Shown here piece after piece: positions 1,172 to 5,975 of a stretch of 64,000 nt of DNA. This DNA comes from a bacterium (GTDB taxonomy: Bacteria; UBA8248): assembly GCA_965207065.1 (NCBI GenBank), contig OZ242260.1, positions 352,001 to 416,000 on the forward strand, written 5' to 3'. Made by a program: the position numbers and the translations under genes. Below the pieces are notes generated by a model, which worked only from the letters and a program-made list of their open reading frames with translations, did no database searches and was not told the DNA's origin. Position 1 is the first letter of the stretch, and the number at the start of each line of letters is the position of its first letter.

Positions 1172-1239
1172 AGAGGAGAGGGGCAGGCAGGGCGGGAAAG
1201 GCGCGGGCGTTTCGGTGGTGGACTTCCTCTGGATCCGGA

Positions 1240-1281
1240 GCAAAACAAAAGGGACCGACGCAACATCGCGCCGGCCCCGGG
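1240..1281 (-). terminator. Intrinsic terminator after ssb
   Basis: Minus strand GGGGCCGGCGC-GATGTT-GCGTCGGTCCC followed by TTTTGTTTT. Confidence 0.7.
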
Positions 1282-1285
1282 GTGA

Positions 1286-1720
1286 TCAGAATGGAATTTC
1301 CTGCCCGACTACGCCCGCGGTCGCCGCCACGTCGTTCGTCTCGGGGTGCGCGCCGTTGCCGTTCCCGTTCATTTTTTCCAAAAACTGCACGACCCCGCCC
1401 GGCGCGATGAGTATCTCGGTGGAGAAGCGATCCGAATCCTCCTCGTCCTTCTTCCAGCGCCTGGTCTGGAGCTTGCCGGCCACGTAGAGGAGGCGGCCCT
1501 TCTTCGCGTGGCGTTCGAGCATGTCCACCAGCCCGGGCTGGAAGGTCACTACCCTGTGCCATTCGGTTTTGTCGACACGCTCGCCGGATTGTTTCTCCAC
1601 GTAGCCCTCGTCGGTGGCGATGGATAGATTCGCGACACGCCCCCCGCTTGCGAGATGGTTGATGGTGACGTCTGCGCCTAAGCGCCCGATGAGTTCCGCA
1701 CGGTTCAGTCCGAATGCCAT
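1286..1720 (-). CDS. ssb: Single-stranded DNA-binding protein (mobile-element type)
   Basis: LNRAELIGRLGAD, TEWHRVV, GKLQTRRW and a C-terminal EIPF tail; AAGGAG RBS before ATG 1720. Confidence 0.95.
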   Translation of the reverse strand: MAFGLNRAELIGRLGADVTINHLASGGRVANLSIATDEGYVEKQSGERVDKTEWHRVVTFQPGLVDMLERHAKKGRLLYVAGKLQTRRWKKDEEDSDRFSTEILIAPGGVVQFLEKMNGNGNGAHPETNDVAATAGVVGQEIPF

Positions 1721-1794
1721 TTTGATACTCCTTGAAGTGTGGTGTGGATGATGAGGGAAGCGGAGAGCCTTTCTCTCCACTCCCCCGGTTCGCC

Positions 1795-1929
1795 CTATAC
1801 GCTACAGAACTCCTCTGTCTCGCCTTGCGCCTCGTCGCGCAGCTTGCGGATCGTGTACGCGTCGAGCCCGAGTTCTGCGAGCAACTCGTCTGCGGTGGGA
1901 ACGTCGACGTCGTAGTCGTTCTCGTACAT
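1795..1929 (-). CDS. Small acidic hypothetical protein, 44 aa
   Basis: Below the ORF-track cutoff: MYENDYDVDVPTADELLAELGLDAYTIRKLRDEAQGETEEFCSV, preceded by RBS GAGGAGG. Confidence 0.65.
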   Translation of the reverse strand: MYENDYDVDVPTADELLAELGLDAYTIRKLRDEAQGETEEFCSV

Positions 1930-2129
1930 GGCCAGGCCTCCTCTCGGGTTGTCGCCGGCGGCGGGAGCTGGAGACCGTCTCCCTCTCCCTACCGGGCATT
2001 TGCCCGGCTCCCCGCTTCACTCTCACTCTCGGGAGGAGGTTCTCACCCGGCGGGGACAACTCGCAGAGGGCGCTTGCCATTGCCGCGGATTCGTGTCAGA
2101 AGGCGCGCGGACGTGAGGAAGGAGGAGTC

Positions 2130-2579
2130 ATGGAACGACTTAAGTCCTGGATTCCGGCGCTGTCGTGGCTGCCGGCGGGGATTATGGCGGAAGAGGTTCT
2201 GCGCGCGGGGTTCGTGTCCGGAATGATGGCGCCCGCCTCCCTCGTGGAGTTGACATTGGTTGCTCCGTGCGGCCTGCCGCTCGCGCTTGCCTGTAAGCGT
2301 CTCGCCCGCTCGGGGTATCCGGGTCCCGCCCTGGTGGCGTGGGCCGCGCTCGGCGCCGCCGCACTCGCGGGCTTCTTCGGTCCGCTCCCCGCAGGCGTTC
2401 AGGCGGTACTGGTCTCTCTTCCGGTCTGGCTGGCGGCCTGGCGGGTCGAGCGAAGGTCCCGCCGCCCGGGACTCGCCTTGCCTCGGGAATGGCGCGGGCG
2501 TTCGCCCGGCAGGTTCCTCCTACGGGAGTTGAATGACCTGGAAACCCCCCGCCGAAAACGCTTCCGGCAGACGCCCTGA
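2130..2579 (+). CDS. Hypothetical membrane protein
   Basis: AGGAGGAG RBS; several hydrophobic segments and a basic C-tail. Confidence 0.55.
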   Translation: MERLKSWIPALSWLPAGIMAEEVLRAGFVSGMMAPASLVELTLVAPCGLPLALACKRLARSGYPGPALVAWAALGAAALAGFFGPLPAGVQAVLVSLPVWLAAWRVERRSRRPGLALPREWRGRSPGRFLLRELNDLETPRRKRFRQTP

Positions 2580-2722
2580 GGTCGACGGGACGGCTGCGGA
2601 GCAGGGCGGCGTCGAAACCTCCCCCCTCCATCGTCGTCCCGCCGATGGGGTGGACGACCCCTCCTGGCAGGTATCACACTGTGGCGAGGTGGCGTCTCTA
2701 AATCGCCCGGAAGGAGTATCCC

Positions 2723-3748
2723 ATGGAACAGGTTCACATCATCGGTATCGACCTGGCGAAACACGGATTTTAACTCCATGGCGCGCGCTCAGACGGTTCG
2801 GTCGCGTTTCGCAAGAAACTGAGCCGGGGGAAAGTACCGGGTTTTCTGTCTTCGCAGCCGCGCTGCCTGATCGCGATGGAGGCGTGCGCGAGCGCGCACT
2901 ACTGGGGCCGCGAGATCGGCAGGCTCGGCCACGAGGTGAAGCTCATGCCACCGGTCTACGTGAAGCCTTACCTTAAGCGTCAGAAGAACGACGCGGCGGA
3001 CGCGGAGGCGATCTGCGAGGCCGCCTCGCGCCCGACCATGCGCTTCGTGGCGGTGAAGAGCGAAGCGCAGCAGGCCCAGGGCATGCTGTTCCGTACGCGC
3101 GATCTCCTGGTTCGCCAGCGCACGCAGACTGCCAATGCGTTGCGCGGTCACTTCGCGGAGTTCGGGGTCATCGCTCCGCAGGGACTGGTGAATACCTCTC
3201 GCCTGGCGGCGGCTCTTGGAGACCCGGTTACGGAGCTGCCGACGGTGGTCCGCGAGTTGGGCGGGGTTCTTCTCGATCAAATTGCCGAACTCAACGAGAA
3301 GATCAGGGAGTTGGAGAGGCAACTCCACGCGGGCGCTTACGCGGACGAGGAGGCGAGGCGTCTGATGAGCATCCCGGGGGTTGGTCCGATCACCGCGTCG
3401 GCGATACTGGCCTTCGCGCCGCCTTTGGAGAGCTTCAAGCGCGGACGGGACTTCTCCGCCTGGCTCGGCCTCGTGCCCAGACAGCACTCGACCGGAGGTA
3501 AGTCCCGACTGGGCAAAGTGTCGAAGATGGGACAGCGCGACATCAGGCGGCTGTTGATCATAGGTGCCATGGCGGTGGTGCGCAGCGCGGTCCGGCGCGG
3601 CGCGCCGGCGGGCTCCTGGCTGGCCCGGATGCTGGCGCGCAAGCCTCGGATGCTGGTCGCGGTGGCGCTGGCGAATCGAATGGCGCGCATCGCCTGGGCG
3701 CTGATAACGAAGAAAGAACTCTACCAGGAACGGGCGCCGGTCGCCTGA
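2723..3748 (+). pseudogene. IS110 transposase/recombinase with premature TAA at codon 17
   Basis: AAGGAG RBS, then MEQVHIIGIDLAKHGF*LHG continues in frame into AMEAC, KNDAADA, SIPGVGPITA, WLGLVPRQHSTGGK; the stop is at 2771-2773. Confidence 0.9.
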
Positions 3749-3990
3749 GCGGCAGACAAACGGATTATCCGGGAATGTGAGCAGGTCGGAGGACGGGTAA
3801 GGGAAAATGGTCAATGAGACAGGATCGGGAAAACCAGGGTACCGCCGAGAGCTATCGAGCTCGCCCCGCCGAATTGGACCCGATCCGCGCATCTCCATAC
3901 AGACCCGCGGCGAATTATATGCCGCATCAAGAGGTCGGACATACGACTGCGCCTGACCACAGACCCTGAATCGTTCAAATGACATGCTTG
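3749..3990 (+). ncRNA. Bridge RNA / seekRNA of the IS1111 element
   Basis: Two stem-enclosed internal loops (3822-3886, 3887-3952) whose loop strands match the target flanks and the circle junction; exact RNA ends unknown. Confidence 0.8.
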
Positions 3991-4048
3991 CATTTACGGG
4001 GTCGTCCACATACGGCGGTACGTACCCCCGCCGTGCCGGCTCAGGCGC

Positions 4049-4858
4049 TCACCACCCGGCGAGCCCGGAAATCACGGGCGCGTCCTCGACCACCTCCACT
4101 TCCTCGCGGGAGAGCCTCTTGAAGGCGAGGCACATCGCGACTTCCTCCCATGAGTCCAACGGTCCGTGCTCGATGCCCGTGGCCAATTCGACAATGGTGT
4201 AGCGCGGCGGAAAGACCGGCATCCCCCTGTGCACGCCCGAGGAGTGCCAGGAGCGCGAAGCGCAACGGGCGCACCTTGATGCTCCGTCCGAATCCTGGCC
4301 GCAATCAACGCAGGCGTTCCTGGCGCGCCTGTCGCGATAGCGCGCACGGCTGGCGGCGTTCTTGCGCGGGCGGCGCTTTGAATCCCTTGCGGCGCACGAA
4401 GCGCACGTCGAAGCCCCCGCGAGGACCTCTCCTCCGCATCTACCGCAAAGTCCCCTGGCGCGCCTTTTTTCATAAAGCTTCTTCTCCGCCGCGCGGCGCG
4501 AATCCCTGCAATTTTCGCAGACGGTGGCGCCCTCGGCGGGTTCTCGTTCGCCGCAAGTCGTGCAGAGCCCGGCTTCGAGACGATCATCCCGGCGCTTCCT
4601 CGCCCTCACACGCGCCATGCGGCGGCGGCTCTCTGGAGAGCGTCCTCCGTATCGAGCCCCCTCTCCCCGGGCTTTGGCGTACCGGGCGCGTTCGGACATG
4701 CGTCCTCTCTCGAGGCAGAATTCGCAGATACTGCGACCCTGTGCGGGAGGGTGTTTTCCGCACTTCGGACAAGCCCCCCGCGCTCTGCGCTCGGCCGTCC
4801 GGCGCCTGTGTCGTTCGCGTTCATAAGCGCGTCGCTTCTCCGGGTCTTTGTGGGGCAT
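4049..4858 (-). CDS. Arg-rich protein with four tandem CxxC-CxxC (zinc-finger-like) repeats
   Basis: GAAGGAGG RBS; four units resembling RRARG(L/A)CxxCG-x8-10-CxxC. Confidence 0.75.
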   Translation of the reverse strand: MPHKDPEKRRAYERERHRRRTAERRARGACPKCGKHPPAQGRSICEFCLERGRMSERARYAKARGEGARYGGRSPESRRRMARVRARKRRDDRLEAGLCTTCGEREPAEGATVCENCRDSRRAAEKKLYEKRRARGLCGRCGGEVLAGASTCASCAARDSKRRPRKNAASRARYRDRRARNACVDCGQDSDGASRCARCASRSWHSSGVHRGMPVFPPRYTIVELATGIEHGPLDSWEEVAMCLAFKRLSREEVEVVEDAPVISGLAGW

Positions 4859-4928
4859 GGTTTCCCTCCTTCCGGCGACTGGAGTCCGTACGGCCGGCAG
4901 TGGGCCGACGAAACGTCTTGCGGGCTCA

Positions 4929-5228
4929 TCACCGGCTCATCATTCGGCCCCAGACGAGGTGTTCGCCCCACAGCTGGAGCCCGCTCCCGGGGATTTTGAT
5001 CCCCGTGCAGACGATGAGCTCGTCCCGGGCGGGACGCATCTCCCTGACAACACGGCGCGAGGCCGTCACGCGTTTTCTTCTGCGCTTACCCGGTTCTCCC
5101 GCGGGGACGGGACGAATGCCGCCCCGGGCATCGGATTGATAGCGTTTGACTTCGTAGCGCTCATCGGCCAGGCCAGAGCCCAGAAGATGGATGAGGAAGG
5201 TATTCGCTTCGGGTTTTGGTTTACGCAT
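4929..5228 (-). CDS. Hypothetical basic protein, 99 aa
   Basis: AAGGAGG RBS before ATG 5228 (MRKPKPEANTFLIHLL...); co-oriented with the zinc-finger gene. Confidence 0.55.
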   Translation of the reverse strand: MRKPKPEANTFLIHLLGSGLADERYEVKRYQSDARGGIRPVPAGEPGKRRRKRVTASRRVVREMRPARDELIVCTGIKIPGSGLQLWGEHLVWGRMMSR

Positions 5229-5627
5229 CGCGCGGCCTCCTTGGAGTGGGTGGGTGATGGCGGCGGAAGTGAACCTCGACCGGGAGAGCCTCCCTCCCGG
5301 ACCATTCCGCCGCCCCCTCCCGGTCCGGCTCCGCCTCCCGGCGGGGCGGCGCGCGTCGATGGAGGAAGAAAGAGATGCGGCTCGTATTCGCGCATTTTTT
5401 TCGGATTTTTTATCAAATCCCGGCGCGGGGGATGTCCGGCGTGAGCGCGTACGGCGGCAAGGCGCAGGAAATCCGCTGCAAAATTTCCTTGCACGCGGAT
5501 TGTTTTCGGATAATATGGGCGTCCGTGAAGAGGACGGGACGCCGCGGCGAACAACCGGGGGGGGGTATTCCGGGATACGGGGCGCGCGCCGCCGCATGAG
5601 CGGGAGAGAGCGGAGTTCATCGCGCGC

Positions 5628-5975
5628 TCAGGCGAAGGGGCCGTGACCGTAGGGATAATCATCATCGTACATCTCGCCTTCCTCGTAATCACGCCGCCAG
5701 GAGTAACGCCCCGTCCGGGTCTCCCAGTCGAATTGCTCTTCGTTCCTCTCGGGAAGGGTGTAGGAGGTGAAGGCGGACCAGTCGCCGCGGTACGCCCGCC
5801 ACAGGGCGCCCGAGAGCGCGGTGACGATGGTCCAGAGCGCGGCGAGGAGCCAGGCCGCAGAGATGAAGCGGACGCCCCTCCCGCCGCTTATGCCGATAAG
5901 GGTGTAGAGCAGCGCGAGAGCGGGGCCAGCGAGAACGATCAAGTGCGCCGCAGCGGATGGTTTCGGGTTTGTCAT
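5628..5975 (-). CDS. Hypothetical membrane protein (2 TM, acidic C-tail)
   Basis: GGGAGG RBS before ATG 5975; two hydrophobic helices followed by a D/E/Y-rich tail. Confidence 0.6.
   Translation of the reverse strand: MTNPKPSAAAHLIVLAGPALALLYTLIGISGGRGVRFISAAWLLAALWTIVTALSGALWRAYRGDWSAFTSYTLPERNEEQFDWETRTGRYSWRRDYEEGEMYDDDYPYGHGPFA

Follow-up and report, generated by a model that had tools for sequence, protein, structure and literature searches.

A probable bispecific guide RNA gene in the 3' non-coding region of an IS1111-type insertion sequence

The 3' non-coding region of an insertion sequence (copy W) of the IS1111 group very probably encodes a bispecific guide RNA of the type described as bridge RNA or seekRNA. 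We put the probability of this reading at about 93%. The element lies within a 64-kb window, the whole stretch of 64,000 nucleotides that was analysed. We found an element with defined boundaries, a conserved RNA fold, and guide segments that covary with the flanks, the ends and the core of the element. The initial annotation had proposed an RNA that matches both its own target and its own donor, and four guide sets in one genome, covariation in 38 relatives and agreement with the published guide order of IS1111 elements bear this out. By analogy with the work on ISEc11, ISPa11, ISKpn4 and IS621, the RNA would be made, bound by the protein and direct recombination.

In the mechanism that we propose, an outer helix and a second closing helix (P0) would enclose two stem-loops, the first for the target and the second for the donor, and a segment of stem-loop 2 would probably pair with the left end of the IS. 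After excision of the IS as a circle, its junction would be recombined at the common CG with a 14-bp site (5 + CG + 7) by the DEDD transposase carrying the RNA. Transcription would start from a promoter formed only on joining of the ends and consisting of TTGCAT, a 17-nt spacer and a -10-like hexamer that spans the junction.

Boundaries, genomic copies and target site of the element

Copy W starts with ATGGGG (2645) and ends with ...ACATA (4012). The subterminal inverted repeats are located 5 nt (left) and 3 nt (right) inside the ends, an arrangement also present in most relatives. The non-coding region downstream of the transposase gene comprises 264 nt (3749-4012) versus 78 nt upstream (2645-2722).

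Using BLAST, W was searched against its own genome of 4.48 Mb. Two full copies, C2 and C3, are ~96% identical to W. A further copy, C4 (L004 and L007; genome 1511425-1515381), is damaged and consists of two pieces 2.57 kb apart with foreign DNA between them. Copy D5 (L005; genome 2260461-2261612; 81% identical) kept the left end and the gene, while its RNA region is missing from just behind the 5' strand of the outer helix onwards, and D6 (L006; genome 1523565-1524440; 80% identical) is damaged and without its 5' third. The other BLAST matches in the genome were short and concerned the flanks of W alone. In three places such flank-only matches abut each other and represent uninterrupted paralogues of the W insertion site, with the sequence GGCCCGC-CG-GCGGTAC twice and GGTCCGC-CG-GCGGTAC once, each with one CG.

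As these uninterrupted paralogues carry a single CG, the boundaries of W and the restored site GTCCCGC-CG-GCGGTAC, which the initial annotation had expected after excision, are real. There is a CG on either side of W, and the uninterrupted paralogous sites of three different targets contain a single CG. Insertion is thus site-specific and without target duplication, at a dinucleotide common to both junctions and the empty site. The target of W contains a 10-bp palindrome, CCGCCGGCGG, in line with the palindromic target described initially. Because of this palindrome the two target guides of W have CCGCCG in common, and the orientation at this target rests on two outer positions.

W is located inside one copy of a segment of 3-4.5 kb which recurs about 8-10 times in the genome with 69-88% identity (window 1200-2644 and 4015-5700). 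On the minus strand the segment contains an SSB gene (1286-1780, PF00436) and an ORF for a Cys-rich, zinc-ribbon-like protein (4049-4858). Since W-type and C2/C3-type targets both lie within it, the segment may be a mobile or phage-like module in its own right. Positions 4900-4914 of the window are a local paralogue of the C2/C3 site (GTGGGC-CG-ACGAAAC), which is unoccupied and has 4 mismatches to the right half of the C2/C3 guide.

Guide segments of copy W

The features of W and of the predicted RNA are listed in Table 1. For stem-loop 1 the segment GTACCGCCG had been described as the exact reverse complement of the core and the right flank, and the match to 4013-4021 is indeed 9/9. In the 64-kb window this 9-mer occurs just twice, in the guide and, as reverse complement, at 4013-4021; the chance expectation is 0.44, and at least two copies were obtained in 4 of 100 shuffles. 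The second segment, GCCCCGCCG (3863-3871), had been given as an 8/9 match to the left flank and the core. The match stands, the length of nine nucleotides does not: in the relatives, positions 8 and 9 of the proposed 3' 9-mer match at chance level, and the effective 3' target guide is therefore restricted to the last 7 nt (3865-3871).

In stem-loop 2 the segment ACATACGA (3939-3946) is identical to the predicted circle junction, as annotated; it reads from the right end through the core into the first base of the left end. The proposed pairing of CTCCAT with the left end was retained in part: the complementarity to ATGGGG with one G:U pair is present, but covariation does not support it.

Table 1. 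Features of insertion sequence copy W and of its predicted guide RNA (positions in the window)
Feature	Position	Strand	Remarks
IS1111-type insertion sequence, copy W, 1368 bp	2645-4012	+	ends common to copies C2/C3; empty sites agree
Left target flank GTCCCGC	2636-2642	+	last 5 nt and core matched by the 3' target guide
Core dinucleotide CG, left junction	2643-2644	+	single CG in empty paralogous sites
Left subterminal inverted repeat GTGGACGACCCC	2650-2661	+	12-bp exact repeat with 3998-4009
Transposase gene (DEDD and PF02371), pseudogene	2723-3748	+	TAA at 2771-2773 (codon 17); rest of frame open
Outermost closing helix, 5' strand	3774-3782	+	pairs with 3986-3994
Closing helix P0, 5' strand GGUCA	3809-3813	+	pairs with 3954-3958
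Stem-loop 1, target-binding module (predicted)	3822-3886	+	outer stem 3822-3829/3879-3886; short stem 3834-3836/3875-3877; hairpin 3849-3853/3858-3862
5' target guide GUACCGCCG	3839-3847	+	complementary to top strand of core and right flank (4013-4021), 9/9
3' target guide CCCGCCG	3865-3871	+	same sense as left flank and core (2638-2644), 7/7; pairs with bottom strand
Stem-loop 2, donor-binding module (predicted)	3887-3952	+	inner stems 3902-3905/3933-3936 and 3907-3911/3921-3925; weak outer stem 3887-3891/3948-3952
5' donor segment CUCCAU, tentative	3893-3898	+	complementary to left end ATGGGG, one G:U
3' donor guide ACAUACG	3939-3945	+	same sense as last 5 nt of right end and core (4008-4014), 7/7
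Closing helix P0, 3' strand UGACC	3954-3958	+	pairs with 3809-3813
Outermost closing helix, 3' strand	3986-3994	+	includes -35-like TTGCAT (3988-3993)
Right subterminal inverted repeat GGGGTCGTCCAC	3998-4009	+	partner of 2650-2661
Core dinucleotide CG, right junction	4013-4014	+	sequence reading, empty sites
Right target flank GCGGTAC	4015-4021	+	sequence reading, empty sites

Four guide sets in one genome

The ends and the donor loop do not differ between the copies in this genome, but four different target loops occur. An alignment of the copies revealed that the two segments of loop 1 are the most variable part of the element. The flanks of the other genomic copies were compared with their guides, a check suggested in the initial annotation, and C2/C3, C4 and D6 were each found in a site that matches their own guides. 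The outcome named there as speaking against the reading, copies in sites without relation to their guides, was thus not observed. C2 and C3 possess the 5' segment GTCTGGCCG and a 3' segment with the last 7 nt TGGGCCG, and their site is ...GTGGGC-CG-GCCAGAC.... The corresponding segments of C4 are GTATGGCCG and CAGGACG, with the site ...TCAGGA-CG-GCCATAC.... D6, with the 5' segment GTACATTCG and the right flank CG-AATGTAC, lacks the left end and allows the comparison of one flank. The 5' target guides of C2/C3, C4 and D6 are different 9-mers, each with a 9/9 match to its own right flank, and the 3' target guide matches its own site 7/7 in W, C2/C3 and C4.

The exchanges between the copies are concentrated in the guides. 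The 11 non-core guide positions include 7 at which W and C2 differ, compared with 53 among the 1357 positions aligned elsewhere (Fisher p = 6e-8); between W and C4 the numbers are 5 of 11 and 46 of 1027 (p = 9e-5). C2 and C3 occupy identical target sequences in two paralogues that have diverged. The identity between the two copies is 99.93% over the IS and just 74% and 84% over the flanks, which identifies them as independent insertions of one guide set. The single base by which C3 departs from C2 is one nucleotide deleted from the outer stem of stem-loop 1 of the RNA (L003:1557-1720).

The 14-mers predicted from the guides (5 nt + CG + 7 nt) also occur in the genome as perfect unoccupied sites, two for W and one each for C2/C3, C4 and D6. 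Both W sites are empty paralogues of the W insertion site, those for C2/C3 and C4 correspond to the flanks of these copies without an insertion, and the D6 site resembles the right flank of D6. The empty sites are located at genome positions 20173, 4448588, 1550232, 2249684 and 602400.

Transposase gene and predicted junction promoter

When the transposase of W is read through the TAA codon, it matches PF01548 (DEDD_Tnp_IS110) with 52.3 bits and PF02371 with 83.6 bits. The intact transposase of C2 comprises 341 aa and scores 322 bits against NF033542, "IS110 family RNA-guided transposase" (cut-off 140); its relatives in the PDB are the transposases of ISCro4 and IS621, matched over the C-terminal domain. 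By eye, the GL-P----S(t)G motif of the IS1111 group in the C-terminal domain is present as GLVPRQHSTG in W and as GLVPRQHSSG in C2. W belongs to the IS1111 group of the IS110 family, and every family feature open to a sequence test was found.

The interruption of the gene described in the initial annotation is located at codon 17, which is CAG or CAA in the sibling copies, and the frame is otherwise open. Because of this TAA, copy W cannot produce its own transposase. An internal ATG at 2876 would give a product without the first catalytic Asp. Intact genes are present in both C2 and C3, and with their near-identical RNA scaffolds and identical ends these copies could supply the transposase to W.

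A promoter and terminator scan of 2550-4150 found no sigma-70-like promoter in the linear element, and the one terminator-like site, inside the gene, is at chance level. Of 45 unique right ends, 40-43 have the motif CTTGCA(T) at a constant distance from the terminus, with an A-rich tract before it. At the predicted circle junction TTGCAT is followed by a 17-nt spacer and a -10-like hexamer, to which each end of the IS would contribute its two outermost nucleotides and the core the two in the middle. Position 2 of this hexamer is always A, and position 6 almost always T. The circle junction is compatible with a promoter formed by the joined ends, and on account of the -35-like element, the 17-nt spacer and the -10-like element the motifs of W fit the published view, as given in PMC11187229, that circle formation creates a promoter from which tnp mRNA and long RNA are transcribed together. 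The -35 box is part of the 3' strand of the outer RNA helix, and in this part of the helix pairing-preserving changes were found on the 5' strand only.

In public RNA libraries, four runs each contained 1-3 short contigs of low depth with 90-99% identity to W; with this degree of identity they derive from relatives or sibling copies. The sole contig over the RNA region came from run X16. It is 249 nt long and covers 3736-3984 with 92% identity. Of its 20 differences, 5 lie within the two target guides, so that we predict it to carry another guide set. As a low-depth contig it may stem from contaminating DNA and is no proof of transcription, RNA ends or habitat, and the lack of coverage elsewhere carries no weight.

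These data bear on the question whether W is active at present. The guide RNA gene could be real and W nevertheless a fossil, immobile and with an RNA that is neither made nor used, so that the matches would record its last insertion. This would agree with the TAA codon and the loss of the first catalytic Asp on restart at 2876, with the failure to find a promoter in the linear element and with the two perfect W target sites that are still unoccupied. Against it stand the open remainder of the reading frame, the helices of the W RNA, all of which are intact, and the intact transposase genes of C2 and C3 in elements with the same ends and the same donor loop. We consider a fossil copy unlikely, although it is the strongest of the competing explanations; it concerns the present activity of W and not its identity, and it overlaps with the guide RNA reading.

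A tentative and rather improbable extension of the guide RNA reading is that the copies form a shared pool with one enzyme and several guides. As the ends and the donor loop are common to the copies, the transposase of C2/C3 could load the RNA of W, excise W and deliver circles to the two empty W sites, and the 3' strand of the outer helix would double as the -35 box. If this were true, a locus that provides only a guide would remain mobile and continue to steer its relatives, and one stretch of nucleotides would act in the circle as promoter DNA and in the transcript as part of the RNA structure.

Conserved fold of the predicted RNA

A protein-based scan with one genome per species yielded 574 relatives. 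The best 80 of these 574 loci (60-82% identity) were kept; they belong to Alphaproteobacteria, Vicinamibacterales, Longimicrobiales and other groups, and 77 of these 80 contain the conserved two-loop RNA. Covariation was counted in a model-fitted alignment of 70 distinct sequences. The stem GGATCGGG/CCCGATCC and the hairpin GAGCT/AGCTC, both proposed for loop 1 in the initial annotation, show covariation, with 97.3% and 87.6% of the cells paired. The short stem of loop 1 reached 97.6% and the two inner stems of loop 2 reached 98.9% and 99.4%. Compensatory changes were detected in 21 of 30 pairs of this alignment.

The outer stem of loop 2, annotated as GCGCA/TGCGC, is there in W but is not conserved. 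Over the 70 distinct sequences 60.5% of its cells are paired and two of its five pairs each fail to form in more than 50 of them, and RNAalifold did not predict this stem from a plain MAFFT alignment of 40 longer relatives. The same RNAalifold analysis recovered every supported helix and added the outermost closing helix, with 90.4% of the cells paired compared with 30-40% after sliding and with compensatory changes in 4 of 9 pairs. Helix P0 was absent from the model used to build the alignment and was predicted anew by RNAalifold; 94.7% of its cells are paired and 3 of its 5 pairs are compensatory. For the 35 pairs overall, 24 are compensatory and 90.9% of the cells are paired, compared with 20-38% in slid controls. 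The RNA had originally been drawn from 3822 to 3952; the two further closing helices widen the domain to about 3774-3994.

The support for the fold comes from the comparison with relatives and not from thermodynamics. The folding energy of 3815-3960 (146 nt) corresponds to z = -1.8, and 12 of 200 shuffles fold equally well. For the region of 266 nt the values are z = -2.97 and 0 of 200 shuffles. As the 146-nt core is not significantly more stable than its shuffles, folding energy was dropped as evidence. An Rfam scan of 2400-4300 with E up to 10 assigned no family and returned only three sub-threshold microRNA matches. G:U pairs are frequent and compatible with the + strand only.

Sequence comparison alone cannot tell whether an RNA or the DNA strand of the same sense is at work, and the guide-like segments might act as DNA, with single-stranded or extruded transposon DNA pairing with the target as in IS200/IS605 (IS608). 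We regard this as very improbable. In IS1111 relatives RNA from the non-coding region co-purifies with the transposase and is needed for transposition, as reported in PMC11187229; the protein falls within NF033542 and not within the HUH family; and the nested domain of ~220 nt is rich in the G:U pairs typical of a folded transcript.

Covariation of guides, flanks and core in relatives

For the comparison of the putative guide RNAs with their sites, the IS ends were called from the subterminal inverted repeat and the guides were not used. This worked for 63 of 85 full-length RNA matches. It failed for the other 22, nested or truncated copies or ones lacking a clear inverted repeat, and these were left out. 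After removal of rows with gapped guides or short flanks, and with identical guide pairs counted once, 38 unique cases were available.

The 3' target guide (last 7 nt) matched its own flank 7/7 in 28 of the 38 unique relatives, compared with 11 of 1400 cross pairings. The remaining ten showed 6/7 (seven cases), 5/7 (two) and 4/7 (one). For the 5' target guide a match of 7/7 was obtained in 17 of 38 self pairings and in 4 of 1406 cross pairings. Exactly 6/7 was reached in 9 of 38 versus 31 of 1406, which gives at least 6/7 in 26 of 38 versus 35 of 1406, and 12 of the 38 relatives had 5/7 or less. This guide was scored over 7 nt as the best of three registers, with the controls scored alike. A strict contiguous-match score had been used for it and was replaced, as the loop register shifts by 1-2 nt between subgroups and strict scoring undercounts. 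Some of the imperfect matches probably result from the automated end-calling, and others are real mismatches.

The core varies by lineage (CG, TG, AG, CA) and changes together in the site, in both target segments and in the 3' donor segment. The 3' donor guide agreed 7/7 with the last 5 nt of the right end and the core in 27 of 31 unique sets; paired with ends that differ, it did so in 17 of 846 combinations. Relatives with the left end ATGGAG have a 5' donor segment exactly complementary to it, and the sole relative with ATGGCG has CGCCAT. With G:U pairs allowed, 6/6 was found in 20 of 31 self pairings and in 305 of 684 cross pairings, which does not discriminate between them owing to the strong conservation of both partners. 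An invariant AC follows this segment; it stands where the complement of the core would be and complements none of the cores.

That the matches arose by chance, or are functionless left-over copies of flanking DNA, is hardly credible even in a G+C-rich window, with guides that have CCGCCG in common owing to the palindromic target and with a 9-mer that some shuffles produced twice, since four guide sets match four different sites in one genome and self pairings exceed cross pairings by far across the 38 unique relatives.

Several relatives show unusual arrangements. In four loci (L018, L019, L045, L093) the dinucleotide at the right junction is CA or AC and differs from the left junction and the guides (CG or TG); insertion at a mismatched core, later mutation or an error in end-calling could account for this. 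In an alphaproteobacterial MAG (L045:2763-3921) a complete element is followed by nine head-to-tail copies, with a period of 121 bp, of the donor stem-loop and the right end, and at the boundary of the repeat unit the right end is joined to an internal CG where stem-loop 2 begins. In L043:1257-1411, L042:2599-2754 and L020:2576-2949 (Longimicrobiales and alphaproteobacterial MAGs) an element is inserted in the guide RNA gene of a sibling. Guides of the L043 type match ...GAGGC-CG-GACATAC..., the donor-loop DNA of a sibling element, and those of L020 match the conserved 5' part of the neighbouring RNA gene. On the basis of these matches some relatives appear to target the RNA genes of their relatives.

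Comparison with known systems

The mechanism, the IS1111 guide order and natural retargeting were all published in 2024, and W adds a particularly clear natural example to what is known and changes nothing in it. Four guide sets, the four targets they occupy and empty sites that match them are found together in one genome. With these occupied and empty sites the target rules are directly readable, as 7 nt and 9 nt overlapping at the CG core. For engineering, W represents a compact CG-core system of the IS1111 type with natural "reprogrammed" variants.

Durrant et al. 2024 (PMC11208160) described target- and donor-binding loops with left guides complementary to the bottom strand and right guides complementary to the top strand, and predicted bridge RNAs in the right end of 93% of the IS1111-group elements. 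As in the account of the IS621 bridge RNA given there, the predicted RNA of W is bispecific, has internal loops for target and donor and a core common to both, and follows the published strand logic. In contrast to IS621 as described, the RNA of W is located 3' and not 5' of the gene, the order of the guides within the loops is reversed, the core is CG and not CT, and the 5' donor segment does not cover the core. The proteins are distantly related (E = 7e-12 over the C-terminal domain). With respect to the handshake guides described by Hiraizumi et al. 2024 (PMC11208158), no equivalent was seen by eye 3' of the top-strand guides of W; the A and the G after the core-pairing CG complement neither donor nor target.

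ISPpu9 from Pseudomonas putida, according to the description in PMC12288879, is similar to W as a member of the IS110 family with sites in repeated sequences, a small-RNA gene downstream of the transposase and several genomic copies.

The closest counterparts are the seekRNAs of the IS1111 elements ISEc11, ISXne4, ISPa11, ISKpn4 and ISPst6. Siddiquee et al. 2024 (PMC11187229) reported that IS1111 transposases bind seekRNAs of 70-100 nt and of 145-170 nt, in which the top-strand match is located 5' of the bottom-strand match, and described natural retargeting between ISEc11 and ISXne4. The GL-P----S(t)G motif is a group trait given in that paper; further traits of the group are subterminal inverted repeats of 7-17 bp, a transposase of 330-350 aa and a longer non-coding region downstream. 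W resembles these elements, as far as they are described there, in its long downstream non-coding region, the transposase of ~340 aa and the subterminal repeats, in two target matches which overlap at the insertion point and have the same order, and in natural retargeting between close relatives and the expected junction promoter. Stem-loop 1 (~65 nt) and the RNA closed by P0 (~150 nt) would fit the short and the long form. W differs in lineage and target, and retargeting took place here among copies with 95-96% identity in one genome. The role of the long form is left open in that paper, and the match to the donor end in the second stem-loop and the two closing helices are described here for W; worth keeping beyond this example are the larger nested RNA domain and the overlap of its outer helix with the -35 box of the predicted junction promoter.
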